From an uncultured Candidatus Saccharibacteria bacterium (GTDB taxonomy: Bacteria; Patescibacteriota; CPR2; UBA1875; CAIMLA01), in assembly GCA_964501135.1 (NCBI GenBank), contig CAZCRI010000003.1:18654-82653 (forward strand): 64,000 nucleotides of DNA, read 5' to 3'. The stretch's first letter is position 1. The number at the start of each line of letters is the position of its first letter. The translations under genes and the position numbers were made by a program. The notes under the pieces were generated by a model that searched no databases, was not told the DNA's origin, and saw only the letters and a program-made list of their open reading frames with translations. Shown piece by piece: positions 2,986 to 31,787 of the stretch.

Positions 2986-3204
2986 ATGGACTACAAGAAA
3001 GTATTTTTTACACTTCTTACGACGGTGCTTTTTGTGCTGCTTATTATTGGCGGTTATTTACTAACGAAACAGCAAACCGAGAGGAAGGCTACCCCTTCGG
3101 ACGGTGGTGTCGCTTGTACCATGGAGGCAAGAGTCTGTCCCGACGGCAGCTATGTCAGTCGCAGTGGTCCAAAGTGTGAATTTGCAGCCTGCCCGATGAA
3201 ATAA
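2986..3204 (+). CDS. Small membrane-anchored Cys-rich protein (72 aa, 4 Cys)
   Basis: N-terminal hydrophobic helix then CTMEARVCPDGSY...CEFAACP; no recognised family. Confidence 0.35.
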   Translation: MDYKKVFFTLLTTVLFVLLIIGGYLLTKQQTERKATPSDGGVACTMEARVCPDGSYVSRSGPKCEFAACPMK

Positions 3205-3221
3205 TTAGACGTAAACCACGA

Positions 3222-3268
3222 AAAAACCCACTGCCGGGTAGGTCCTTTCGGATCCACTCAGAAGTGGG
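3222..3268. terminator. Bidirectional stem-loop/terminator between small ORF and sigma factor gene
   Basis: cccactgccgggtaggtcctttcggatccactcagaagtggg; on minus strand followed by tttttt run. Confidence 0.5.
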
Positions 3269-3877
3269 TCAGTTTATCTGCATCTGTATTGCAAGCTTTC
3301 GCTTGGCGCGCTGCAGTGCGTTGTCGACGGCTTTGGGGTGTGACCCCAGTTCGAGAGCGATCTCTACGTAGGAGCGCCCGTTGTAGAACAAGCGCAGGCT
3401 GCTCGCCTCAAACTTCGAAAGAGACGCCGCAAGCCCCTGGCACACCGCCTCGTGCGAGAGTGCTGCCAGACAGACCTCTTCAGCCGAAACAGATGCCTCG
3501 TCGCAGAACACATCTAACAGTGTCCGGTCGCCGTCGCTGGTCATGTCAACGGTACGACTCAGAGAGACATACCCGTTGAGCGGACTGTGCTTCTTACGCA
3601 TAGCCTGCTTCACGGCGGATATGAGATGACGAGAAACACAGAGCTCAGCGAAGCTATGGAACGACGCACCCTTCGAAGGGTCGTAGTCCCAGATCGCTTT
3701 GCAGAGACCGATGTTTCCCTCCTGGACGACATCATCTCGACCTGCTCCTGCCAAGAAGTAGGAACGCGCCCTGGAACGAATCATCGGGCGGTAACGACGG
3801 AAGAGCTCGTCGTAGGCTGATTGGTCGCCCTTACGGGCGGCCACAACCAGCTGAGGATCTGCCTTTTGTGTGTGCAT
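3269..3877 (-). CDS. Sigma-70 family sigma factor, SigH (Spo0H)-like; high-GC (~62%) gene
   Basis: Region 2 (DDVVQEGNIGLCKAI), FAELCVSRHLISAVK, LNGYVSLS...DRTLLDVF and region 4 HTH; resembles Bacillus SigH by memory; strong RBS gggggga before ATG; GC far above neighbouring genes. Confidence 0.85.
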   Translation of the reverse strand: MHTQKADPQLVVAARKGDQSAYDELFRRYRPMIRSRARSYFLAGAGRDDVVQEGNIGLCKAIWDYDPSKGASFHSFAELCVSRHLISAVKQAMRKKHSPLNGYVSLSRTVDMTSDGDRTLLDVFCDEASVSAEEVCLAALSHEAVCQGLAASLSKFEASSLRLFYNGRSYVEIALELGSHPKAVDNALQRAKRKLAIQMQIN

Positions 3878-3932
3878 TTTGTCTCCCCCCGAGACGTCGA
3901 ACTTGCTTTTGCGGGTACAACTTGTCGAGCAA

Positions 3933-3961
3933 GATTATATACCATTTATACCTCCGTGTCA
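3933..3961 (-). promoter_or_regulatory. Consensus sigma-70 type promoter TTGACA-N17-TATAAT for the SigH-like gene
   Basis: Minus strand: ttgaca(3956-3961) 17-nt spacer tataat(3933-3938). Confidence 0.5.
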
Positions 3962-3980
3962 AGATTAATATACCCCAGGC

Positions 3981-4014
3981 AACATTCTAACATTCTATAG
4001 AATGTTAGAATGTT
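3981..4014. promoter_or_regulatory. Perfect palindrome copy 1: aacattctaacattcta|tagaatgttagaatgtt = (ACATTCTA)x2 then (TAGAATGT)x2; abuts -35 (ttgaca 4016-4021) of ArsR-like gene
   Basis: Exact reverse-complement symmetry read directly; identical 32-bp core at 4327-4358 and 8224-8255. Confidence 0.85.
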
Positions 4015-4052
4015 GTTGACAAGAGTCAGTGTACAAGACGTAAGATAAACCC

Positions 4053-4325
4053 ATGGGGAAATCTCCGAAACAACTAGAACGTTATTGTAAAGGGATAGCA
4101 AATCACCACCGCATCAGCATCCTTAATCTTATTCACGACGAACCGGGAATATGCGTGGAAGACATATCAAAGAAACTGGAGACAAGTTACAAGACTGTGG
4201 CCATTCACACTCAAAAACTAGTCCAAGCAGGGCTAGTAAACAAACGCTATATGGGAAAGGAGATGACGCAGGTACTATCTCCCTACGGCGAAACTTTCTA
4301 CAAATTTCTACAATCAATAAAGTAA
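4053..4325 (+). CDS. ArsR/SmtB-family winged-helix transcriptional regulator (90 aa)
   Basis: HHRISILNLIHDEPGICVEDISKKLETSYKTVAIHTQKLVQAGLV is a typical ArsR HTH; flanked on both sides by the 32-bp palindrome. Confidence 0.75.
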   Translation: MGKSPKQLERYCKGIANHHRISILNLIHDEPGICVEDISKKLETSYKTVAIHTQKLVQAGLVNKRYMGKEMTQVLSPYGETFYKFLQSIK

Positions 4326-4326
4326 T

Positions 4327-4358
4327 ACATTCTAACATTCTATAGAATGTTAGAATGT
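4327..4358. promoter_or_regulatory. Perfect 32-bp palindrome copy 2 (between ArsR-like gene stop and rarA start)
   Basis: acattctaacattctatagaatgttagaatgt exact. Confidence 0.85.
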
Positions 4359-4369
4359 ATATGAGAGAC

Positions 4370-5674
4370 ATGGAAAAGAAAAGTATATTTAATTTAAATG
4401 ATGCTCATAAACCGTTAGCGGAGAGGATGCGTCCTACGGACTTTGCCCATTTCTTTGGGCAAGGGGAAATTGTTGGAGAGGGAACGCTGCTACGCCAGAT
4501 CATCGAGAATGACAGCCTCGGGTCGATTATCCTCTGGGGACCTCCTGGAACCGGCAAAACTACCTTGGCACGAATTATTGCCAACCAGACCAAAAGTCAC
4601 TTCGAGGAATTCAGTGCCGTCACAAGCGGGATTGCCGACCTGAGACGGGTGGTAAAGGAAGCCCGCGAACGCCGCGAACTCTATCAGCAAAAGACGGTAC
4701 TTTTTGTTGACGAGATTCATCGTTTTAGCAAAAGTCAGCAAGACGGCTTCTTGCCCCATATTGAGAACGGCACTATAGTCCTCATTGGTGCCACTACCGA
4801 AAATCCAGGGTTCGAGATCAACTCCGCCATCATGTCTCGTTCCAAACTCTTTGAACTAAAGCCTCTTACCGAGGATGATATCAAAAATATCATCAAGCTT
4901 GCCCTCAAGGATAAAGTCAGCGGACTCGGTGAGCGAAAACTTACGATAGAAAAGAAAGCCCTAGACCAGTTAGCCGCCTTCTCGGCAGGGGATGCCCGTG
5001 TAGCCCTAAACTCGCTCGAGATCGCCACCAAGGCAAAACTTTTGAACAACAAAATTACTCAAGAAATGGTAGAACAAGCCCTGAGCAAACGCTTTGTCAG
5101 TGCCTACAAAGGTGGCGCTAATCACTATGACATTATCAGTGCATTTATCAAGTCAATGCGCGGCAGCGACCCTGACGCAGCTATCTACTGGCTCGCCAGG
5201 ATGATCGAGGGCGGGGAAGACCCCAAGTTTATTGCTCGCCGTATGCTCGTCTTTGCCTCCGAAGATATCGGCAATGCCGCACCAATGGCACTGGTCCTTG
5301 CCAACGCTACCTTTGAGGCCGTCACCAAGATTGGTCTCCCCGAGGCTCGAATCAATCTTGCCCAATGCGTAACCTATCTCGCAAGCGCTCCCAAATCCAA
5401 TGCCTCATACCTAGCAATCGATAAGGCGCTAGGCGATGTGCGCAAGGAAACCTTTAGCGGGGTCCCGAAGCACATTGTGAATGCGCCAACAGCTTTTGAT
5501 AAAAGTCAAGGAAAATCATCTGGGTATAAGTATCCTCATGATTACCCGGGCCACTATGTAAACCAGGAATATCTACCACCAGAACTTATAAATAAAAAGT
5601 ACTACTTACCTACCGAGAACGGGGGAGAAGCCGAGATTAAGACTCGCCTTGCTAAGCTAAAAGATAAAAAGTAA
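4370..5674 (+). CDS. rarA: Replication-associated recombination protein A (AAA+ ATPase RarA/MgsA)
   Basis: Walker A GPPGTGKTTLARIIA, Walker B LFVDEIHRF, C-terminal MgsA domain; ORF track starts at 4355 but ATG 4370 (MEKK) has better spacing from gagaga. Confidence 0.9.
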   Translation: MEKKSIFNLNDAHKPLAERMRPTDFAHFFGQGEIVGEGTLLRQIIENDSLGSIILWGPPGTGKTTLARIIANQTKSHFEEFSAVTSGIADLRRVVKEARERRELYQQKTVLFVDEIHRFSKSQQDGFLPHIENGTIVLIGATTENPGFEINSAIMSRSKLFELKPLTEDDIKNIIKLALKDKVSGLGERKLTIEKKALDQLAAFSAGDARVALNSLEIATKAKLLNNKITQEMVEQALSKRFVSAYKGGANHYDIISAFIKSMRGSDPDAAIYWLARMIEGGEDPKFIARRMLVFASEDIGNAAPMALVLANATFEAVTKIGLPEARINLAQCVTYLASAPKSNASYLAIDKALGDVRKETFSGVPKHIVNAPTAFDKSQGKSSGYKYPHDYPGHYVNQEYLPPELINKKYYLPTENGGEAEIKTRLAKLKDKK

Positions 5675-5715
5675 AATACCAGGAGAGCAAACCTCTAATT
5701 TAGAATGGAGACGAT

Positions 5716-7533
5716 ATGTCAGAGATAGCCGAAATCGAGCGACCCCACGGACTAGAAGACAGCACAGAAAACCATCTAGAAGATAGCGAAATTACAGAAA
5801 CTCTTAAGCCTAGAAGCTACGTAGACTCCGATGGTACAGAGAGACAAATCTACACACTAAAGAGCAAAGACGGCAAACCCGTAGAGGTAGTATTCTACTC
5901 TCCAGAGGAGATTCCATTCAACGGTGACGTAGTTTCAGATAAGCACGTCATGATACTGGGCGAACAGCCTAAATGGCGCTCCAAGAAAGAGTGGGATACT
6001 TTTGGGCACAACATCGCAACTGAATCTCTAGGGGGAGTCAATAGCCCCTCTATGAGCCATCAAACAGAGCGGGTTCTTGAAGGTAACGGCTTAATTTTTG
6101 CCGAGTCAAACCCTACGGCGATTCTAGACTTGGCAATGATACTGACAGGGGATTCAAGCAAAGAAGATCAAAATGATCGACGAAACGCCCATCTCAAGAT
6201 AATCACCCCTAGAGCACAAGAGATGATGGACAAAATCATCGCGTGTAAGCTATATGACTCGAACGGCAAAAGAAGAAATGCTAGCAGTTATGAAGGTGAG
6301 GTACTAACCTTGCTCGCCCTGGCTGGTAATAACGAGGCTCAGGAGATACTTGACCGCAGTTACGAGCTGATGCAAAAACAGGATGCCGAAACCGAAGCAG
6401 AATTACAAGATCAAATCGCAGAAATGGGGGAGCGCAACAAAGACTCTGAAGATATGAAGATAGAAGATCTAGTTGCTGTTCATGCCACCCGATATTTACC
6501 AAAAACAATCAGTGGTACCCCGACCATTCGTACCACCTTTGATGCTACGGGCTGGGAAGTTCCACGCGACACCGTTCATTTCTCCCTGAACCATCACGTC
6601 GCTGGTCATATGTATGGTAGCTGGGATGGAGCTCCCTACGTCGTGATATCTTCCCTGGGGGATATGATGGAGACCAATGGCAAACCAGCCTCTCTTAACA
6701 CCGTAGATACTTACTTTGAGGCCACTCCTGGTACAGGGGTGAAACTCCCTGAAAGCACCTGGATAGCTAAGCCAGGAATACTGGCAGAAGGTGAAATCGT
6801 TGCGTTCGATGACGAGAAACAAGAGCTTGTATACAAAAACGAACGAATAAATGCAGCCGATATTGCCAAGCTTTACGAATCTCTCGGCTACGACGAAAAA
6901 CAATGGTTCGAATGGACCGTCCTCGACAGGCTTACTGCCGACCTTAGCCAATATGAAGAATGGTGGCGTATCCATGTCACACAAGAACAAAGCGACCGTG
7001 TTTATGAATATCGAAAAGCTGAGGGTTCGGGTCAAGAAACGACTTTGGCATTCGTTGAATTGGGTGTCGATGAAGCAGTGCGAAAAATCTGTGAAGAGAA
7101 GTTTGGGGTAGTACTCTCGGACAAAGACTTCGCTACTTTATGCAACACCATGCGTTCGTACTTTGCTAGTAAGATAAAAACTTTTGCCATCAACAGTCAG
7201 ATTACCAGAATGGGCTACAAACCAGAGCACGGCGGGATGTGGGCCTGGGGAGACTCCTGGGACGTTACTGGCTCTACCGCAAAGTTAGGTGGTGAGATTG
7301 GAGTTCCCGTAATGGCACACTCCGGCACTATCAATTCCGATATGGAAAGCTATGTACCAAGTGAATTCAGACGAATGAATGCTGAGCCTAGGGCAGACGA
7401 TGATGGTTATGCCCCCGTGAAACCCAAAGACCCTAGAGAAGTGAAAGAAGATGTAAAAACTACTGTTAGGGAAAAGGCTGATAAAATATCACCGCAACTC
7501 CGCCGCGCCCTCTACCTGATGGGGGCGCTCTAG
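5716..7533 (+). CDS. Large hypothetical protein (605 aa), acidic N-terminus, no recognisable domain
   Basis: RBS ggaga before ATG; long uninterrupted ORF at native GC; no motif recognised. Confidence 0.6.
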   Translation: MSEIAEIERPHGLEDSTENHLEDSEITETLKPRSYVDSDGTERQIYTLKSKDGKPVEVVFYSPEEIPFNGDVVSDKHVMILGEQPKWRSKKEWDTFGHNIATESLGGVNSPSMSHQTERVLEGNGLIFAESNPTAILDLAMILTGDSSKEDQNDRRNAHLKIITPRAQEMMDKIIACKLYDSNGKRRNASSYEGEVLTLLALAGNNEAQEILDRSYELMQKQDAETEAELQDQIAEMGERNKDSEDMKIEDLVAVHATRYLPKTISGTPTIRTTFDATGWEVPRDTVHFSLNHHVAGHMYGSWDGAPYVVISSLGDMMETNGKPASLNTVDTYFEATPGTGVKLPESTWIAKPGILAEGEIVAFDDEKQELVYKNERINAADIAKLYESLGYDEKQWFEWTVLDRLTADLSQYEEWWRIHVTQEQSDRVYEYRKAEGSGQETTLAFVELGVDEAVRKICEEKFGVVLSDKDFATLCNTMRSYFASKIKTFAINSQITRMGYKPEHGGMWAWGDSWDVTGSTAKLGGEIGVPVMAHSGTINSDMESYVPSEFRRMNAEPRADDDGYAPVKPKDPREVKEDVKTTVREKADKISPQLRRALYLMGAL

Positions 7534-7555
7534 GCAAATTCTCTATACTATAAAA

Positions 7556-7591
7556 TACCTAGTGTGGTTATTACCACACTAGGTATTTTTG
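7556..7591 (+). terminator. Rho-independent terminator after 605-aa gene
   Basis: atacctagtgtgg-ttatt-ccacactaggtat followed by ttttt. Confidence 0.6.
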
Positions 7592-7605
7592 AATAAGATT
7601 ATACT

Positions 7606-7634
7606 TGACAATTCTGTCCAAAAGACGTATTATA
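7606..7634 (+). promoter_or_regulatory. Promoter TTGACA-N17-TATTAT for high-GC gene 7698-8087
   Basis: ttgaca 7606-7611, 17-nt spacer, tattat 7629-7634. Confidence 0.45.
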
Positions 7635-7697
7635 TGCTGTCGAAATCATTCGACCTACCGACGAGGTTGCCCAAAGGCAACGAGGGGAGGTGGCTTC

Positions 7698-8087
7698 ATG
7701 CCGCCGATTGCTAGCGAAGAAGAGAAGAGGCAGTACATCGAACTTCTCCTGAAGAACGCTCGTAGACTGGACTACCGGTCTATCCTGCGTTCACCGGAAG
7801 TGAAGCAGGAGTTGAACGGTCAGGAACTGCCGTCCAGTCTTCCGGTCTGGACTATTGCCATCGACGCTGATGACACCTACATCGTCACCGGCCTCGACGC
7901 CAAGGGGCAGGAAGTCGTGAACTTCCTCTACACCATCGGTGGAGAAGAGTACGAACCACGACTCACCACCTTTGTGGCCGCCCAGCTGCTCGTCGAAGGG
8001 GCCATCATCGACCTCATCGTCCAGCACGGCCCTGGCCTCTACTCTGATGTCATCATCGACGAGGTTGTTCAGGACATGGTCGGGTAG
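7698..8087 (+). CDS. Hypothetical protein (130 aa), high-GC island gene
   Basis: RBS gaggggagg then ATG at 7698 (ORF track frame opens at 7605); ~58% GC. Confidence 0.5.
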   Translation: MPPIASEEEKRQYIELLLKNARRLDYRSILRSPEVKQELNGQELPSSLPVWTIAIDADDTYIVTGLDAKGQEVVNFLYTIGGEEYEPRLTTFVAAQLLVEGAIIDLIVQHGPGLYSDVIIDEVVQDMVG

Positions 8088-8223
8088 TCGGCATCCACTC
8101 ACAACAAGGTCCGCCAGGAGAAGGCAGCCAGACCCTCGACTTTACCCGAAGTCCGAGCCACATCACGCCCCGTAGGACGTTCTCAACTCGAGAGCGCCCT
8201 CCGGGGCGCTTTCATGTAAAAAT

Positions 8224-8255
8224 ACATTCTAACATTCTATAGAATGTTAGAATGT
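8224..8255. promoter_or_regulatory. Perfect 32-bp palindrome copy 3 upstream of high-GC membrane protein gene
   Basis: acattctaacattctatagaatgttagaatgt exact. Confidence 0.85.
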
Positions 8256-8413
8256 TGTGCTGAGTAATAATTAAGCTAAGGACGGTAAACCCCTTTACAA
8301 AGGCGGAAAAGGGGAATATAATCTGGCCGTCGAGATTCTTCGACGCACTTTGACTGGTGCTTATATTCGAAACGTGGCCTGGCGGCCACCAAGACCTAAG
8401 GAGGCTGGGCCTA

Positions 8414-8965
8414 ATGAACCCAACTCTTCGTTTGACATGGCGCCTCGCGCCCTATATGTTCTTCGCCCTCGGCGGACTGCTCCTCGTAGCTCTCGAACTC
8501 ACCGTCCTGATCCTGATCGGTGTTCACGGTCTGGATGCACTCACGGTGATCGGAACCATCTATCTGGCGTACGTCTGCAAGATGATCGTCGAGTACATGG
8601 GTGGCAACGTGATCGTCAACGAGCTTGGCGAACGCAACGGAAAACCGATCAAGGTCTTCCGTCCTGGCAAGAAGAACATTCGCTTTCTGAAGAAGCTTGG
8701 CTGGTATCACGACTTGGGGAACTACTATCCCGTACTCGTGAACCCTCGTGAGGGCAAGTTTAGCCTCACCAAGCATCTCTTCATGCTCGAACCTGGCTCG
8801 GAGAAGTTCTCCGACCAGCTCCTCGAAGTAGCAGCCACCAACGCGGTGGCCTACGAGGAAATCGCAAAGAAGGTCCAGACCAGCAAGTACTGCGCTTCAA
8901 GTGATCTGAGAAAGTTCGAGAAGGCGAATGCCATCTCGGAGTCAATCAAGGATATCGTGAAGTAG
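8414..8965 (+). CDS. Hypothetical membrane protein (2 TM N-terminus + soluble C-terminus), high-GC island gene
   Basis: RBS aaggagg then ATG 8414 (MNPTLRL...); hydrophobic segments FFALGGLLLVALELTVLILIGV. Confidence 0.5.
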   Translation: MNPTLRLTWRLAPYMFFALGGLLLVALELTVLILIGVHGLDALTVIGTIYLAYVCKMIVEYMGGNVIVNELGERNGKPIKVFRPGKKNIRFLKKLGWYHDLGNYYPVLVNPREGKFSLTKHLFMLEPGSEKFSDQLLEVAATNAVAYEEIAKKVQTSKYCASSDLRKFEKANAISESIKDIVK

Positions 8966-9048
8966 AACACAACCAGACTACAGACAACAGACAACACAGA
9001 ACATAGTCTGAGAAGAATAGTGAGTGTCCCACACCAGTCAAAGCGCAG

Positions 9049-9088
9049 GGGGCCGACCGCGAACAGCGGCCGGCCCCTTTGCCGTTTT
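9049..9088 (+). terminator. GC-rich rho-independent terminator
   Basis: ggggccgaccgc-gaaca-gcggccggcccc then tttgccgtttt. Confidence 0.6.
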
Positions 9089-9144
9089 ACCTTGTTTTAA
9101 GCACTACTCAAGAGTAGAATGTGGTTATACCAAGGAGAAATTCT

Positions 9145-11250
9145 ATGTCAAACCTTAACCTTAGTGATAACGAAAAACGAGATATTCAAAAATATCTTAC
9201 AGAAAATAAACTGCTCCCAGATAAATACAGGTTTCTTCTTTTTGATTCGACTCGTGAAGTAGAACTTATATGGAATGGCATGTCAGATGATATTGAGAGT
9301 TCAGTATTGCCATTTCAGACAATTGAGCATATTGATGAGCCACGAGATGAAGAGAAGATAAACTCTCAACAAGTGTTATTTGACACCTCGGGAAAACAAA
9401 TCGAAGGATGGTCAAATAAGCTTATCTGGGGCGATAACAAATTTATAATATCCTCACTTAAGAATGGCCCTCTTAGAAAACAGATTGAAGCAGAAGGCGG
9501 ACTAAAGTTAATCTATATAGACCCACCATTTGATGTCGGAGCTGACTTTTCTATGGAGGTAGAAGTTGGAGAGAATAACAGTAAGAATATCTTTACAAAA
9601 AAGCCATCGGTAATTGAAGAGGTCGCATACCGGGACACATGGGGAAAAGGCGCTGACAGCTTCATCTCAATGATATATGAACGACTGAAATTAATGAATG
9701 ATTTATTATCTGAAGACGGAAGTATTTACATACATTGTGACTCACGCGTAAATAGTTATATTCGTCTAATCCTTGACGAAGTGTTTGGAAGAGAAAACTT
9801 TGTAAATGAAATTGCCTGGTGCTACACGAGTGGCGGTGCTGGTAAAACAGCTTTTTCAAAAAAACATGATACGATATACCTCTATTCGAAGGCCAATAAG
9901 CACATTTTTAACATTCAATACTATAAGCGTTATGCCCTAATTCAAGAAGGGGAAGAAGTAGGTTTTGATCCTAGGATACAGTACTATAAAGATGAAAAGG
10001 GGAGAAGTTATCGTTTAAATCTTACTCTTGACTGGTGGAGCGACATTGGAATTGTTTCACCAAATAGCAACACAGAAAGGACGGACTATCCAACACAAAA
10101 GCCAGAGGGCTTACTTCAGAGAATAATTGAGACTTCATCAAATAAGGGCGATTTAGTAGCCGACTTTTTCTGTGGTTCAGGTACAACATTGGCAGTAGCA
10201 GAAAAACTGGGTCGTAAATGGATTGGTTCTGATCTTGGACGGTTTTCAATTCACACCACTCGTAAACGAATGATTGGCGTGCAACGAGAACTAAAAAATG
10301 CCGGGACAGACTTTAGACCATTTGAGATACTTAATATCGGTAAATACGAGAGGGAAAAGTACCTCGGTATTAACGATAGTTTGCGCGATGAAGAAAAACG
10401 AATGCAAAGAGAAAATAAGGAACGCGAATTTATCAAACTCATTCTTTCAGCCTATAAAGCCGAGGCTGTAAATTCCTTTAATAATTTCGTTGGGAAGAAG
10501 CGAGATAGGCTGGTAGCCGTGGGGTCAATTGATACGCCAGTAACAAATGACTTTCTGGAGAATATAATTATTGAGTGCAAAGAAAAGCATATTACAAAAG
10601 TAGACATTCTCGGATTTGACTATGAAATGGGCCTGGACTTTGAAACAACAAAGAAGCTAGGTATTGATGTTCAGTTTAAGGTCATACCTCGAGAAGTATT
10701 TGATAAAAGAGCAATAGAAAGAGGGCAAGTAAAGTTCTATGATGTTGCTTACATTGAAGTTAAACCCATTATCAAGGGCAGAGGAAATGAAAAAGAGGTA
10801 GCAATTGAACTAACCGACTTTAGCGTTTTTTACAATCAGGATAATACCGGAGAGGTTGAGGAAAAATTACAGGCCGGCGGCAGTAAAATTGTTATTGAAA
10901 ATGGACAGGTTATTAAAATTTTCAAGGATAAACAAAGCGGTATAGTAGAACGTGAAACTCTCACGAAGAAATGGACAGACTGGATTGATTATTGGTCTGT
11001 TGACTTTGAATTTGAAAGCAAGAAAGAACTTATCAACATCGCAGATCCCGCAACTGGTAGGGAGGAAAAGAAGTGGACTGGTAATTACATTTTTGAAAAT
11101 GAATGGCAATCCTTTAGAACTAAAAAAAACAGAAACTTAGAGTTAACATCTGCATATAAAATTACGTCGAAGGGTAAAATGAAAATTGCTATCAAGGTAA
11201 TTGATATTTTCGGTAACGATACCACCAAGGTAATTGAGGTGAATGTATGA
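9145..11250 (+). CDS. mod: Type III restriction-modification methyltransferase (Mod), beta-class N6A/N4C MTase
   Basis: Motif IV DPPF (IYIDPPFDV) precedes motif I FCGSGTT (ADFFCGSGTTLAVAEKLGRKWIGSD) with TRD between, the Type III Mod order; RBS aaggaga before ATG 9145; low GC (~37%). Confidence 0.8.
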   Translation: MSNLNLSDNEKRDIQKYLTENKLLPDKYRFLLFDSTREVELIWNGMSDDIESSVLPFQTIEHIDEPRDEEKINSQQVLFDTSGKQIEGWSNKLIWGDNKFIISSLKNGPLRKQIEAEGGLKLIYIDPPFDVGADFSMEVEVGENNSKNIFTKKPSVIEEVAYRDTWGKGADSFISMIYERLKLMNDLLSEDGSIYIHCDSRVNSYIRLILDEVFGRENFVNEIAWCYTSGGAGKTAFSKKHDTIYLYSKANKHIFNIQYYKRYALIQEGEEVGFDPRIQYYKDEKGRSYRLNLTLDWWSDIGIVSPNSNTERTDYPTQKPEGLLQRIIETSSNKGDLVADFFCGSGTTLAVAEKLGRKWIGSDLGRFSIHTTRKRMIGVQRELKNAGTDFRPFEILNIGKYEREKYLGINDSLRDEEKRMQRENKEREFIKLILSAYKAEAVNSFNNFVGKKRDRLVAVGSIDTPVTNDFLENIIIECKEKHITKVDILGFDYEMGLDFETTKKLGIDVQFKVIPREVFDKRAIERGQVKFYDVAYIEVKPIIKGRGNEKEVAIELTDFSVFYNQDNTGEVEEKLQAGGSKIVIENGQVIKIFKDKQSGIVERETLTKKWTDWIDYWSVDFEFESKKELINIADPATGREEKKWTGNYIFENEWQSFRTKKNRNLELTSAYKITSKGKMKIAIKVIDIFGNDTTKVIEVNV

Positions 11251-11804
11251 GCCAGCAATTCATTCCTTTTAGCCATGAGGACATAGAACTAAAAAATGCC
11301 TTGGTCGGTAAAGCAAGGGAATTAAGGAGCTCTGAAGATCTTGGTGCACAACTTTCATCGGCACTAATTTACGCAAGTATTACTGAGTATTTAGCCGAGA
11401 ACTTGTTAGCCAACTTAAGATACCTTGTTTATCGCTCCTCCTATGTTGACTTTGCCGGAATAATATTTATTGATGAGAGAAAGAAGACAAATAAGGCACA
11501 AAAGCAAACACTCGGAGACTCCAAGAACAACCTTGGAAAATACAGTTTCCCAGATAAGCCAGATATTATGGCGGTATTAGAGGAGATAAATAAATCAAGG
11601 AATAATCTATTCCACAATCTCGCCAAAGTTAAAGAGTCGGAATTGCATAAGATAGATACAGACATCAAATGTATACAGAATAATACAGAAGAATTTATTG
11701 AAAAAGTAAATGTACTTTATGCTGGTTTGCAGAAATTGGTAATACCAGAGGCGCCCCAAGTGCCGACTGATACTAAGGAGGGAAAAGAAAATGGCACTGC
11801 ATAA
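11247..11804 (+). CDS. Hypothetical 185-aa protein inserted between mod and res (overlaps both)
   Basis: ATGA overlap with mod stop and 14-nt overlap with res start; no motif recognised. Confidence 0.6.
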   Translation: MSQQFIPFSHEDIELKNALVGKARELRSSEDLGAQLSSALIYASITEYLAENLLANLRYLVYRSSYVDFAGIIFIDERKKTNKAQKQTLGDSKNNLGKYSFPDKPDIMAVLEEINKSRNNLFHNLAKVKESELHKIDTDIKCIQNNTEEFIEKVNVLYAGLQKLVIPEAPQVPTDTKEGKENGTA

Positions 11805-14472
11805 AGATTTTCCTAAGGACAAATTTCAAATACTCGACCCAGCGATTAGATGGTTTCCGGCTGAGGAGGATTTACGTAAGGATGGCTACGAAAAACTCCT
11901 GCCGCCTTTCGTACCTGAGTTAAGGGAAAGAGTAGCGGAGTGGCGTAAGGATCACTATGAGGGTGCTAGTAAGACCTCAAAGGCACTTCTAAGCTGGTGG
12001 TTTAAGGAGCCCCATACTATTTATGGCAAAGATGGTACAAGTATAGCTTTTCAATACTATTTTGCACAAAGAGAAGCCGTAGAAACAATCATCTGGTTAT
12101 ATGAAACGGAAAAAGTAGAGGGTAAATACGATTTAATAAAGTTTGACAAACTGGGACGGGTCAGTCCTAATATGTTTAGTGAAGAGTGGCTACGCTTTGT
12201 TATTAAGATGGCAACAGGTAGTGGCAAGACAAAAGTTATGAGTTTGCTTCTCGCCTGGTCTTACTTTCACAAGCTTTATGAAGAAGGGTCCCAGCTTTCC
12301 AAGAACTTCTTGCTCATAACGCCAAATATCATTGTTCTAGACAGGATTAAAAATGACTTTGTAGGTCTCAAGATATTCTACGAAGACCCAATTCTCCCAG
12401 ACAATGGCTACCATGGTCAAAACTGGCAAGATGATTTTCAGTTAAAGCTTCATCTACAGGATGAGGTTGGTGCTATTTCTAAATCTGGAAACATCTTTCT
12501 AACAAACATACACAGAGTGTATGAAGGAAGCATCAACGAGGCTAGTGCTGATGATGTTGATGTATCAAATTATTTTATGGGCAGTAAGGTGACAGGCAAA
12601 ACTAATGACTCAAAGGTAGATTTGGGTGAAATAGTAAGAGATATTGATGAGCTTATGATAATCAATGATGAAGCGCATCATATCCATGATCCGAATATGG
12701 CTTGGTCAAAGTCAATTGAAGATATTCATAACAAACTTCTACAAAAAGGTGGCAAACTTGCCTTGCAAATTGATGTTACCGCGACGCCAAAAAACAATCG
12801 TGGAGAGATTTTTGTTCAGACCGTAACTGACTACCCACTGGTTGAGGCCATCCACCAGGGTGTTGTCAAAAATCCAGTTTTGCCAGATCTTGCTAGCCAG
12901 GCAAAGTTACAAGAAAAACAAAGCTCAATTTTTTCTGAAAAGTATGAAGACTACATCCGACTTGGTGTAGAAGAGTGGGCCAAAACCTATAAAGAACTTG
13001 AACCGACAGGCAAGAAATCGATCTTGTTCATAATGACTGACGATACCAAGAACTGTGATGACGTAGCTGAGTTTTTAGAGAGGAGCTACGCACAACTCAA
13101 AGGGGCTGTTTTAACAATTCACACTAACCAAAGTGGTGAAATATCAGAGACAGTCTCAGGGAAGAAAGAAAAAGAATTACAAGAACTTCGTAAAAAGGCA
13201 AATGAGATAGATAGTCTTGAGAGTCCGTATAGGGTTATCGTTTCGGTACTTATGCTAAAAGAAGGTTGGGATGTAAAGAACGTAACAACTATCGTGGGGT
13301 TGCGACCATATGGTTCAGACTCAAAAATTCTCCCCGAACAAACTCTCGGTCGCGGTCTTCGTAGAATGTATTTTGGACAAGATGTTGAGGAATACGTGAG
13401 CGTCATCGGTACACCTGCATTTATGGAGTTTGTAGAGTCAATCAAGGCTGAAGGTGTTGAGTTAGAAAAGAGAAGAATGGATCGTTCAGGCACTCCGATT
13501 ACACCGACTGTTATTGAGGTTGATACCGCAAATGTCAAAAAGGATATTGATAATCTAGATATTGAGCTGCCAGTTCTTACTCCGAGAATACAGAGAGAAT
13601 ACAAAAATCTGAATCTTTTGAGTGTTGATAAATTCAAACACAAAAGAATCAAAATAAAACAGTTCTCAGAGGAAGAGAAAAAAGAGATTGTTTTCAAGGA
13701 AATAATTGAAGACAAGTTACATCATACAACAGTCCTGAATAGTTCTATTGAACCTAACTATCAAAGTGTAGTTGGATTCTTTGTTCAACGAATTATGAAA
13801 GAACTAAGGTTGTTCGGTTGCTACGATATACTTTTTGGTAAAGTAAAGGTGTTTATAACTCACGACTTATTTGAAAAGGAAGTTGATCTAAACGACTCCA
13901 ATATTCTGAGAAACCTGTCTGAATTAGAGGCAGTCAAAACAATAGTTGAGACATTCAAAAAGGAAATAAATGACCTGACAGTACAGGATGTTGGTGATAC
14001 TGAAATAAAGAATTATCTCAAAGTAAGTAGCGCGAGACCTTTCGTTGTTACTGATGCTAAATATCTTCTACCGAAGAAAAGCGTATTCAATAAGATAGTT
14101 GGAGATAGTGATTTTGAGCTGGAATTTGCAGATTTTCTTGAGAGAGCTGATGATGTTATTTCATTTGCGAAGAACTACCTAGAAATTCACTTCAAGATTG
14201 ACTATAAAAATGCAAGCGGAGCAATTTCCAGCTATTACCCAGATTTCTTTGTCAAAACAGATAATAAGACGGTCTATATTGTAGAAACTAAGGGACGAGA
14301 AGATCTAGACGATATAGAGAAAATTAAGAGATTGGCACAATGGTGTGAAGACGCAACTGAAAGACAAAAGAAGATAGAATACAAGATGCTTTACGTGAAG
14401 CAAGACGAATGGGAGAGATATAGACCAAGTAAATTCACCGAGTTGATTACTAGTATTGGAATGAAGCCATGA
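11791..14472 (+). CDS. res: Type III restriction enzyme Res subunit (SF2 helicase + C-terminal PD-(D/E)xK nuclease)
   Basis: Walker A MATGSGKTKVM, DEAH box IINDEAHHIHD, helicase motif VI-like region, C-terminal YYPDFFV...VYIVETKGRED nuclease motif. Confidence 0.8.
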   Translation: MALHKDFPKDKFQILDPAIRWFPAEEDLRKDGYEKLLPPFVPELRERVAEWRKDHYEGASKTSKALLSWWFKEPHTIYGKDGTSIAFQYYFAQREAVETIIWLYETEKVEGKYDLIKFDKLGRVSPNMFSEEWLRFVIKMATGSGKTKVMSLLLAWSYFHKLYEEGSQLSKNFLLITPNIIVLDRIKNDFVGLKIFYEDPILPDNGYHGQNWQDDFQLKLHLQDEVGAISKSGNIFLTNIHRVYEGSINEASADDVDVSNYFMGSKVTGKTNDSKVDLGEIVRDIDELMIINDEAHHIHDPNMAWSKSIEDIHNKLLQKGGKLALQIDVTATPKNNRGEIFVQTVTDYPLVEAIHQGVVKNPVLPDLASQAKLQEKQSSIFSEKYEDYIRLGVEEWAKTYKELEPTGKKSILFIMTDDTKNCDDVAEFLERSYAQLKGAVLTIHTNQSGEISETVSGKKEKELQELRKKANEIDSLESPYRVIVSVLMLKEGWDVKNVTTIVGLRPYGSDSKILPEQTLGRGLRRMYFGQDVEEYVSVIGTPAFMEFVESIKAEGVELEKRRMDRSGTPITPTVIEVDTANVKKDIDNLDIELPVLTPRIQREYKNLNLLSVDKFKHKRIKIKQFSEEEKKEIVFKEIIEDKLHHTTVLNSSIEPNYQSVVGFFVQRIMKELRLFGCYDILFGKVKVFITHDLFEKEVDLNDSNILRNLSELEAVKTIVETFKKEINDLTVQDVGDTEIKNYLKVSSARPFVVTDAKYLLPKKSVFNKIVGDSDFELEFADFLERADDVISFAKNYLEIHFKIDYKNASGAISSYYPDFFVKTDNKTVYIVETKGREDLDDIEKIKRLAQWCEDATERQKKIEYKMLYVKQDEWERYRPSKFTELITSIGMKP

Positions 14473-15317: not shown

Positions 15318-15339
15318 GCACTAATTATTTTTACATTTA

Positions 15340-15508
15340 CCACTTTTGGCAGCAAAAGTGGTGCAAAACTGCCGACTCCTTGCAAAATCGCAAGTGTTGC
15401 TTCTAACTCACTCGTTCTTAAATGACAAAACTCGTAATGCTCAAACATTGTCTTTTAAGATGCTCGCTCGGGTCGTCGCGCGCTGTATTTTGCAGGTCGC
15501 GGAAAGAA
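15340..15508 (+). repeat. ~170-bp repeat R1 (conserved ends, variable middle); inverted partner at 21073-21254
   Basis: ccacttttggcagcaaaagtgg hairpin, tgcaaaactgccgactccttgcaaaatcgc and ctcgggtcgtcgc.cgctgtattttgcaggtcgcggaaagaa shared with reverse complement of 21073-21254. Confidence 0.8.
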
Positions 15509-21072: not shown

Positions 21073-21254
21073 TTCTTTCCGCGACCTGCAAAATACAGCG
21101 AGCGACGACCCGAGTGACTATCATAAAAAATAATGTTTGACCCCGACGCTACCGTCGGGAGAGTTTTGCTTTTTATGAAGGAACGAAGTAGGAGTGACAC
21201 TAGCGATTTTGCAAGGAGTCGGCAGTTTTGCACCACTTTTGCTGTCAAAAGTGG
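21073..21254 (-). repeat. Repeat R2, inverted copy of R1
   Basis: Ends near-identical to R1 in reverse complement; middle ~80 bp diverged. Confidence 0.8.
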
Positions 21255-21259
21255 TAAGG

Positions 21260-31094: not shown

Positions 31095-31244
31095 TTTATC
31101 TCCTTCGTGGTTTTAGCGAGCGTTTGCTCTCCCACTAACTTTACATTTCTAATTGATATTGAATTCATAAATTGATTTATCTATAACTGTTTCCCGTGCT
31201 GTTTCGAGCTAGTTTCCCGCTTTCGCGGGAATGACGGGAGGGGA

Positions 31245-31787
31245 TTAAATCTTTTTTACTTGTAGACTGTCGAGCTCAACTGGGGTTTCGCGGCCAAACA
31301 TGTTGACCATAACCTTGATCTTACCCTTGTCCTGATCGACATCCTCTACCGCACCATCAAAGCTCTTGAAAGGCCCGTCGATGATACTAACTAGGTCACC
31401 CTTGCGTAGATCAATCTGGAACTTAGGCTCTTCGATACCCATACGACGCTGAATCAGTGAAACCTCAGCATCGCTCATTGGGATTGGAGCAGTACCAGAA
31501 CCGATGAAACCAGTAACCTGAGGCGTGTTGCGTACTACGTACCAACTATCGTCAGTTACAATCATTTCCACCATGACGTAACCTGGGAAGATTCGCTTCT
31601 CGACTGTACGACGACGACCATTCTTGATTTCGATGGTTTTTTCCTTTGGTACAATGACGTCAAAAATCTTGTCCGACATATCGAGAGACTTGATTCTCTG
31701 CTTCAGGTTATCCGCAACTTTCTCTTCGTAACCAGAGTAAGTATGGATAACGTACCAATTTCTACCTTCACTAACCTGCTTTGACAT
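31245..31787 (-). CDS. nusG: Transcription antitermination factor NusG
   Basis: NGN + KOW domains; WYVIHTYSGYE start. Confidence 0.9.
   Translation of the reverse strand: MSKQVSEGRNWYVIHTYSGYEEKVADNLKQRIKSLDMSDKIFDVIVPKEKTIEIKNGRRRTVEKRIFPGYVMVEMIVTDDSWYVVRNTPQVTGFIGSGTAPIPMSDAEVSLIQRRMGIEEPKFQIDLRKGDLVSIIDGPFKSFDGAVEDVDQDKGKIKVMVNMFGRETPVELDSLQVKKI

Follow-up and report, generated by a model that had tools for sequence, protein, structure and literature searches.

A 32-bp palindrome as the probable operator of a small ArsR/SmtB-fold protein in a module conserved across Patescibacteria

The locus described here lies in a 64,000-nucleotide (nt) stretch of a contig from an uncultured Candidatus Saccharibacteria bacterium (CAZCRI010000003.1, positions 18,654 to 82,653; hereafter the window, whose first letter is position 1). 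It comprises a 32-bp palindrome, ACATTCTAACATTCTATAGAATGTTAGAATGT, present in three exact copies (P1 to P3), and the gene for a 90-residue winged helix-turn-helix (wHTH) protein that is enclosed by two of them. The features on which the analysis is based are listed below with their coordinates and, where one applies, their strand.

3982-4013, perfect to 3980-4015: palindrome copy 1 (P1), the upstream site of the wHTH gene
4327-4358, perfect to 4325-4360: palindrome copy 2 (P2), the downstream site of the wHTH gene, directly before rarA
8224-8255: palindrome copy 3 (P3), a solo copy that matches the 32-mer exactly
4016-4046, plus strand: putative promoter of the wHTH gene, read from the sequence; TTGACA (4016-4021), 19 nt, TAAGAT (4041-4046), 6 nt, ATG at 4053; leaderless geometry
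4053-4325, plus strand: gene for the 90-residue wHTH protein with a predicted ArsR/SmtB fold, the proposed reader of the palindrome (Pfam, Protein Data Bank (PDB) sequence matches, AlphaFold model, family alignment)
4370-5674, plus strand: rarA/mgsA, replication-associated recombination ATPase (Pfam MgsA_C/AAA), candidate P2 target
3269-3877, minus strand: SigH-like gene of the sigma-70 family (NCBIfam SigH, 204 bits against a cut-off of 208; Pfam Sigma70_r2/r4)
3934-3962, minus strand: promoter of the sigma gene, TTGACA-17-TATAAT, 12/12, 20 nt left of P1
8294-8322, plus strand: promoter-like site before the 8414-8965 gene, TTTACA-17-TATAAT, 11/12
8414-8965, plus strand: gene for a 183-residue predicted membrane protein, candidate P3 target, with AAGGAGG 10 nt before its ATG

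Exact matching returned the 32-mer at these three places only, as an earlier note on this DNA had claimed; its intervals for copies 2 and 3 were correct, and the one for copy 1 (3981-4014) was one base too long on either side. Allowing up to 3 mismatches brought no additional site in the window, and 100 shuffles gave 0 matches. Copies 1 and 2 extend to perfect palindromes of 36 bp, and copy 3 is 32 bp long. Of the 15 occurrences of the 8-mer ACATTCTA in the window, 12 fall within the three palindromes. A relaxed family search of the 64 kb (13 or more of the 16 arm pairs, no more than 9 differences from the consensus) recovered the same three palindromes and no others. The statement of the note that the window holds no other such repeat thus stands for the palindrome family and fails for the window at large, where other, different repeat families are also present.

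The placements given in the note were reproduced. P1 sits in the divergent region between the sigma and wHTH genes, where it ends 2 nt before the TTGACA of the latter, with its centre at about -55 from the wHTH ATG/transcription start site (TSS) and about -70 from the TSS of the sigma gene. P2 fills the gap between the wHTH gene and rarA, beginning 1 nt past the TAA stop codon and ending 2 to 11 nt ahead of the candidate rarA starts. The database gene call, represented by a 100% identical database protein, starts rarA at 4361, and N-terminal homology with relatives (MEKKSIF... against MTAKSLF...) indicates that ATG 4370 is probably the start. P3 lies upstream of the membrane protein gene. A conserved module resembling a terminator (8148-8216) precedes it by 7 nt, the promoter-like site at 8294-8322 follows after 38 nt, and the centre of P3 is at about -89, upstream of the -35 element. 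The TATA centre of the window form is a minority variant of the family.

A search with the inner 20-mer of the palindrome, TAACATTCTATAGAATGTTA, through bacterial and archaeal genomes in which each species is represented once (596 Gb) gave 44 sites in 41 genome loci, against about 0.5 expected by chance. Nearly all of these loci belong to Patescibacteria of many classes (Saccharibacteria, Jorgensen-, Wolfe-, Nomura-, Brenner- and Zambryskibacteria, Paceibacter, Spechtbacterales and Peregrinibacteria), the remainder being a few 'bacterium' bins without classification and a single short contig from an Omnitrophota bin, and almost every locus carries the full 32-mer. In viral contigs the 20-mer gave 0 matches. 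Because the palindrome is kept nearly unchanged across many Patescibacteria classes, it is neither an assembly artefact nor a local curiosity. In 11 of these 41 loci, the motif has a homologue of the wHTH gene as its immediate neighbour. For the converse test from the protein side, 80 metagenome loci were picked by wHTH similarity alone, blind to the palindrome. A family palindrome was present upstream of the gene in 75 of the 80 and downstream of it, or overlapping its 3' end, in 72, so that the gene is bracketed by two family palindromes in approximately 70. The co-occurrence of motif and regulator in other genomes, which the note had proposed as a check, was therefore found from both sides. 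The commonest upstream form is ACATTCCAACATTCTGCAGAATGTTGGAATGT and the commonest downstream form is ACATTCTAACATTCTGCAGAATGTTAGAATGT; in most family members the coding sequence ends inside the downstream copy, whose ACA TTC TAA supplies the two C-terminal residues and the stop (...KTF*). From these comparisons, the palindrome and its regulator appear to form a module conserved across Patescibacteria, nearly base for base.

By the relaxed family count, the fetched loci hold 0 to 4 copies each, compared with 3 in the 64 kb of the window, and no transposase-like gene was found beside the palindrome copies examined. The note had named a high-copy dispersed repeat unrelated to promoters as the result that would speak against an operator; the element is instead low-copy and promoter-associated. 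A dispersed repeat of the repetitive extragenic palindrome (REP) or miniature inverted-repeat transposable element type was rejected on low copy number in the window and the fetched loci, a sequence identical across classes and the absence of transposase-like neighbours from the copies examined.

The reading preferred here, with an estimated probability of about 0.75, is that the palindrome is the operator of the 90-residue protein encoded at 4053-4325, as part of a Patescibacteria-conserved module. The regulator gene would be enclosed by two operators, and a few extra operators would stand before other genes. The protein would bind as two dimers, as in the 12-2-12 operators of the ArsR family, and would, in the direction of control that we infer, repress its own gene; at other copies it would repress transcription starting at or just past the palindrome. 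Candidate targets in the window are the regulator itself (P1 and P2), rarA (P2), the membrane protein encoded at 8414-8965 (P3) and, less surely, the sigma gene (P1). The note had likewise proposed the adjacent ArsR-like protein as the binding partner, and adjacency, promoter overlap, protein-site co-variation and fold all point the same way.

The window protein was matched by the Pfam models HTH_5 (arsR; 26.5 bits, cut-off 22) and HTH_24 (32.1 bits, cut-off 21.9), and a MarR model also matched. Against PDB sequences, the family profile retrieved HlyU (2.6e-7), CadC and CzrA. The score for NCBIfam HTH_metalloreg, 40.6 bits, is below the cut-off of 55, and the protein is for that reason taken to be a divergent subfamily. 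An AlphaFold model (predicted local distance difference test score 89.8) has the order a1-a2-a3-aR-b1-b2-a5, with helices at residues 5-15, 18-29, 35-42, 46-58 and 77-89 and strands at 62-67 and 70-75. The top 30 structural neighbours of the model in the PDB include CadC, SmtB, HlyU, CzrA, ArsR and PagR, with template modelling (TM) scores of 0.72-0.82; the closest (CadC, SmtB, HlyU, CzrA) score 0.75-0.82. As modelled, the protein has the ArsR/SmtB fold. None of the ArsR-family sensing sites sought in the family alignment (a3N cysteines, a5 His/Asp/Glu, the BigR/HlyU-type cysteine pair) is conserved. The a5 region conserves only Y78, G79, F85 and F89 and has no conserved cysteine; of the invariant histidines, His18 lies in a2 and His52 in the recognition helix. 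Invariant positions are concentrated in a1/a2 (KQLER, KG, NH-R), in the recognition helix (K47, H52, L56, QAGL) and in the wing (LSPYG). Since not every member of the ArsR family has a sensing site, its absence lowers the case for a metal sensor and not that for family membership.

The family consists of proteins of 88-100 residues, in 218 clusters at E <=1e-10 among 1.84 billion representatives, and includes homologues 50-60% identical to the window protein; homologues whose source is named come from Patescibacteria. An exact look-up of the window protein in the protein collection returned no record, probably because it had not been called as a gene. A regulator gene that appears leaderless and overlooked by gene callers points to an annotation gap.

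Over 81 loci, the half-site reads AYATTC-YN-AYATTC-TN, with A3, A9, A11 and T15 near-invariant and positions 8 and 16 (the centre) variable. The complete site consists of four hexamers, two direct and two inverted, at 8-bp spacing with variable 2-bp spacers, in agreement with the four half-sites described in the note. At 56 of 67 loci the two copies have the same centre tetranucleotide (mean of the permutations 27, maximum 38), a statistic that, like the others on co-variation, ignores the kinship of loci. Where residue 48 of the recognition helix is Asn, the centre is TATA (8 sites, with 1 further site having TATG); where it is Thr, TATA occurs in only 1 of approximately 138 sites. At two loci (L112 and L100), the hexamers are ACAAACT instead of ACATTCT, and the regulators have the substitutions F46D/E and S50G and an altered wing; a GH wing is found together with TCTGATATTCT. 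A mutual-information scan of protein columns against site positions was swamped by phylogenetic signal and was used qualitatively only. Taken from aligned sequences, these correspondences suggest that protein and site variants change together, at clade level.

At one further locus (L022), a variant with six symmetric changes, ACACTATAACATTATATATAATGTTATAGTGT, flanks an open reading frame (ORF) of 476 residues without a family (4404-4435 and 5956-5987 of that locus); its outer halves resemble the NrdR box, and a canonical copy lies 2.3 kb away. This variant may point to a second, paralogous reader. A connection with NrdR boxes, considered for the L022 variant and for an ATP-cone ORF in L040, was dropped, as the neighbouring genes gave no link to nrd genes.

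Within 1-15 nt past the upstream copy there is a box resembling TATAAT, in many cases with TG in front of it, and the ATG comes 5-8 nt after the box. This leaderless geometry, with the promoter overlapping the inverted repeat, was observed in approximately 60 homologous loci; the regulator messenger RNA (mRNA) appears to be leaderless, and the upstream palindrome appears to cover the -35/spacer region. (The 19-nt spacer of the window promoter is outside the range covered by the promoter scan.) The two copies at a locus tend to differ at position 7/26: among 67 of each kind, C/G stands there in 44 of the upstream ones and T/A in 51 of the downstream ones. The canonical outer repeat, TGTTAGAAT, resembles an extended -10 element and faces outward on both strands; in P2 it occupies 4348-4356, 4 to 13 nt before the candidate rarA starts. 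The symmetric change T7C/A26G, usual in upstream copies, removes the key A of this element and gives rise to a TTGGAA. In the loci with 42-47 nt between palindrome centre and ATG, the TTGGAA is placed exactly 17 nt upstream of the -10 of the regulator gene itself. Genes beside downstream or solo copies often start 5-19 nt past the palindrome. When downstream copies with a close downstream gene were compared by eye with the other downstream copies, no clear difference in keeping the -10-like A was seen.

The same geometry could be read as that of back-to-back promoters served by an alternative sigma factor, such as the SigH-like neighbour, with no repressor involved. The palindrome contains four outward-facing GAAT/TAGAAT motifs, and SigH/ComX-type -10 elements contain GAAT; start codons lie 5-19 nt beyond the palindrome, the SigH-like gene adjoins it in the window, and RadC, RmuC and similar genes found beside other copies recall competence regulons. 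Against this, only one weak sigma-gene match was found among the other loci (L006, 27% identity), and a relative carries the same sigma gene without the palindrome. A promoter, moreover, needs no perfect palindrome with compensatory evolution, and the variants upstream of the regulator lose the -10-like A and yet stay conserved. Promoters of this kind are considered very improbable as the explanation. The tie between the sigma gene and P1 is itself uncertain.

Both strands of the window copies are able to form hairpins of 14-17 bp (-12 to -15.3 kcal/mol with DNA parameters, z -8 to -9), and the palindrome could act in the transcript as a terminator, stabiliser or processing site in the manner of REP elements. 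This is in line with compensatory changes that keep the symmetry, with the extension of the arms and with the position of many copies tight between co-directional genes and of a few between convergent genes; a simple terminator scan also flagged P2 and P3 on the minus strand. In a hairpin acting as RNA, G·T mismatches should show a strand bias, but sense and antisense counts were 40 and 33 in upstream copies and 35 and 39 in downstream copies. T-tract enrichment after the stem was not found, and in several loci separate GC-rich terminators follow the downstream copy. A terminator or other structured RNA was rejected on these three grounds. Moreover, P1 lies between divergent promoters, upstream of both, and the near-universal tie to one DNA-binding protein and the co-variation with it would be left without explanation. 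A search of 3000-9500 against Rfam (E <=1) returned only a spurious microRNA match. A function in the transcript is thus judged very unlikely.

Several observations weigh against the palindrome being simply an operator. The window copies P1 and P3 lie upstream of -35 elements (centres at about -55, -70 and -89), a position more typical of activators. Approximately 40% of downstream copies have no nearby co-directional gene, and for that reason the downstream copy cannot simply be the operator of the next gene. The spacing of the two copies is 303-430 bp in all but one locus (median approximately 320) without 10.5-bp phasing (R = 0.05, p approximately 0.83), so that phased DNA looping between copies is unsupported. 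The genes beside non-regulator copies form a heterogeneous set, and the kinship of loci noted above bears on the strength of the co-variation. Finally, among the pair changes in variants, 27 are symmetric (Watson-Crick pairing kept) and 19 one-sided, and the arms extend past 16 nt with site-specific sequence, up to 28-29 nt.

The last two points are not predicted by protein recognition alone. Arms of at least 19 nt were found in 40 of 75 upstream copies, compared with approximately 1.5% expected, and two loci (L054 and L102) carry palindromes of 56-58 bp with arms of 28-29 nt, perfect in L054 and with two mismatches in L102. In downstream copies, a mirror image of the coding sequence on the left appears in the non-coding flank on the right, as in tgaaaACATTC...GAATGTtttca. 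Symmetry and arm extension probably result from hairpin-templated correction of one arm by the other (quasi-palindrome template switching, a replication-associated mutational process), or from selection for a cruciform, in addition to protein binding. Symmetric compensatory evolution of a probable protein-binding site, with arms that copy coding sequence into the opposite flank, constitutes an unusually clean natural example of a palindrome correcting itself or of selection for cruciform DNA.

A further possibility is that of a structural DNA element, extruded as a cruciform and serving chromosome organisation or replication, with the wHTH protein as a structure-specific binder in the logic of parS/ParB. 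The identical sequence across the phylum, the low copy number with one copy at the gene of the binder, the perfect symmetry with an AT-rich or TGCA centre, the arms of up to 28-29 nt and the lack of conserved sensor residues in the protein are all consistent with it. Strictly intergenic placement with fixed spacing to -10 elements and start codons is not what such an element would require; in addition, the upstream and downstream copies differ at a promoter-relevant position, and the fold is that of classical repressors that bind duplex DNA. The structural element is accordingly given very little credence in comparison with binding of the protein as a repressor.

The locus was compared with those of close relatives. 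One database entry is 100% identical to the window RarA, and relatives of this protein share 82-93% of its residues. The closest relative is L123, with TopA 95% and RarA 91% identical; this locus and four others (L126-L129) keep the dprA-topA-...-rarA synteny. No wHTH gene or palindrome was found within 7-15 kb in any of these five loci, and because the P1-gene-P2 unit is absent from syntenic relatives it is an indel at the window locus. When 3963-4380 of the window is set against 6852-6974 of L123, nucleotide homology stops at the -35 element of the sigma gene (~3962) and resumes inside rarA (~4380), the breaks lying approximately 20 nt outside P1 and P2; the unit between them has a G+C content of 38.5%, compared with ~48% in the flanks. 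In L123 the sigma gene and rarA are neighbours with their own promoters and no palindrome. The sigma promoter is conserved there, and the rarA promoter, TTGAAA-17-TAGAAT-6-ATG, stands where the window has the TAGAAT of the palindrome. The closeness of P1 to the sigma promoter may thus be incidental, a by-product of the insertion. The single circuit of sigma factor, RarA and membrane protein that the note had drawn is weakened by this comparison: the sigma gene becomes the less sure candidate, and RarA and the membrane protein are retained.

An indel of this kind raises the question of mobility. The palindromes could be sites of recombination or insertion, like the Xer sites that flank 'dif modules', in which case palindrome-wHTH-palindrome would be a unit portable within and between genomes of the Candidate Phyla Radiation (CPR), and solo copies would be its footprints or seeds. 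The absence of the whole unit from the closest relatives with synteny kept, its low G+C content, a regulator without a conserved neighbourhood across loci, and the identity of the window regulator to any database protein of at most 62%, although RarA has relatives at 84-93%, would fit such a cassette. Over 55 loci, however, the regulator gene and its flanks vary together in G+C content (r = 0.75, mean difference -1.5%), which is the behaviour of a mostly resident gene. No linked transposase or recombinase and no target-site duplication were seen, the palindrome has no asymmetric spacer, and the arm extensions enter the outside flank, so that there is no sharp end to an element. Promoter geometry, the upstream/downstream difference and the protein-site co-variation favour regulation. 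A mobile or recombination element in the strict sense is considered improbable, and the portable cassette is kept as a minority reading that is compatible with the palindrome being an operator.

A broader and speculative proposal, to which only a small chance is assigned, joins several of these elements. The palindrome would be a self-symmetrising, cruciform-capable element that doubles as an outward promoter for leaderless genes on both strands. With its sensor-less reader it would make up a portable regulatory cassette able to relocate, as in the window, and to seed solo copies that recruit new genes, often for DNA/RNA maintenance and oxidative repair. The resulting Patescibacteria-wide regulon might answer supercoiling or replication stress, and not a small-molecule ligand.

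Copies away from the regulator adjoin genes for RarA (window), RmuC, RadC (2), PIF1 helicase, RNase HI, an HhH-GPD glycosylase, NUDIX proteins (2), DEAD-box helicases (2), DHH/DHHA1 proteins (2), RNase Y (2), MsrA, superoxide dismutase, an NDH-like oxidoreductase, MurC, glycosyltransferases, iPGM and archaease. A Cys-rich protein of approximately 590 residues lies beside a palindrome 5 times in three to four lineages, and its occurrences are as follows.

L007 1843-3633; L015 1350-3032 and 3077-4825; L017 5646-7355; L030 1532-3334: Cys-rich protein of 560-600 residues, N-terminus CxNCxxxFxIxxxDFxFY

Its hosts are Saccharibacteria, Jorgensenbacteria and Nomurabacteria, it has no Pfam, NCBIfam or PDB match, and among the candidate targets only the regulator itself recurs more often. 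Comparative studies customarily assign genes to a regulon when their families turn up repeatedly beside the site in distant classes. The neighbouring genes lean to nucleic-acid maintenance and oxidative repair, and no theme is claimed. At two loci (L055 and L073), a sequence resembling a transfer RNA (tRNA; GCGGGATCGTCTAA...) with its own TGTGGTAATAT -10 element lies ~40-70 nt past the downstream palindrome, and a tRNA may be among the targets in some lineages.

Systems of this kind are known, in that an ArsR-family autoregulator with an inverted-repeat operator is familiar. The ArsR/SmtB autorepressors (SmtB, CzrA, CadC, BigR, NolR, HlyU) have the same fold and size, with the gene beside an inverted repeat in its own promoter, and a four-half-site palindrome is compatible with two dimers, as for SmtB and CzrA. 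The present module differs from them in that the metal and thiol sites of the family are not conserved, the imperfect 12-2-12 operator is replaced by a perfect palindrome of 32-58 bp, a second, presumed operator overlaps the stop codon, and the site is near-identical across Patescibacteria classes. HrcA-CIRCE, NrdR boxes and LexA boxes are near-identical palindromic sites kept over vast distances with one regulator, its own operon included, and the small set of sites described here is similar. These systems belong to other protein families, have sites of 14-27 bp, and contrast with a regulon that here has no single clear theme; we know of no report of symmetric compensatory evolution, or of bracketing of the regulator gene, for their sites. 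Sites on both sides of a regulated unit, as with the OL/OR sites of Lambda CI and the auxiliary operators of lac and gal, suggest cooperative action at a distance, but here the enclosed unit is only the 270-bp regulator gene and the spacing has no helical phasing. REP elements, bacterial interspersed mosaic elements (BIMEs) and 'dif modules' are likewise intergenic hairpin-capable palindromes, and the window unit behaves as an indel relative to close relatives. In contrast to REP/BIME sequences, the copies here are few and not in the hundreds, and the sequence is shared across classes instead of being species-specific; in contrast to both groups, there is no linked REP-associated tyrosine transposase, other transposase or recombinase, and the palindrome is tied to a regulator gene and to promoter geometry.

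No published description of the module was found in a search of full-text literature that included the literal sequences, in which subscription papers were thinly covered, so that the result is not proof of novelty. The features that we could not find described, and which are apparently new, are the near-identity of the site across Patescibacteria, the bracket architecture, the upstream/downstream difference and the self-symmetrising long palindromes. The earlier note had not anticipated the phylum-wide conservation, the symmetric evolution of the arms, the upstream/downstream difference or the absence of the unit in relatives. Patescibacteria (CPR) make up a large share of bacterial diversity and are almost all uncultivated; to our knowledge, almost none of their gene regulation has been characterised. 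One 90-residue protein and one 32-bp DNA form a concrete pair testable in vitro, and the module offers a handle for predicting regulons in thousands of metagenome-assembled genomes. In those few Saccharibacteria that can be cultivated, it could possibly serve as a portable and tightly defined means of controlling genes.

Further observations concern the surroundings of the palindromes in the window. The sigma gene (3269-3877) has a G+C content of 57% within a window of 46%, and its identity in two relatives is 66% and 53%, where that of TopA is 95% and ~82%; with values so far below those of TopA, it is apparently fast-evolving or exchanged. The 183-residue membrane protein (8414-8965) has no family match in Pfam or NCBIfam. 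The 10-kb segment 5641-15573, of mixed G+C content (35-57%), has no counterpart at this place in L123 and is a variable island, with P3 inside it; it holds an ORF of 605 residues without a family, two small high-G+C genes and a type III-like restriction-modification pair (9121-11250 and 11791-14472). The terminator-like module of 70 bp that precedes P3 (CACGCCCCGTAGGACGTTCTCA...GAGAGCGCCCTCCGGGGCGCTTT; 8148-8216) recurs in L123 at 11585-11654 and 12284-12336 with 93-96% identity, behind unrelated small genes and with no palindrome after it. A perfect hairpin with a 17-bp stem at 7552-7589 (AAAATACCTAGTGTGG TTAT CCACACTAGGTATTTT), after the 605-residue ORF, is an ordinary bidirectional terminator outside the palindrome family. 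Adjacent inverted-repeat pairs at 15337-15508 and 21073-21257 (97 nt at 86% and 68 nt at 90% identity) flank approximately 5.6 kb and look like an intergenic repeat family or a mobile segment. Short hairpins related to these repeats (GCCTTGCTTTAGCAAGG) are located at 139, 15661 and 59277, and the sequence at 192-239 resembles that at 31206-31253.

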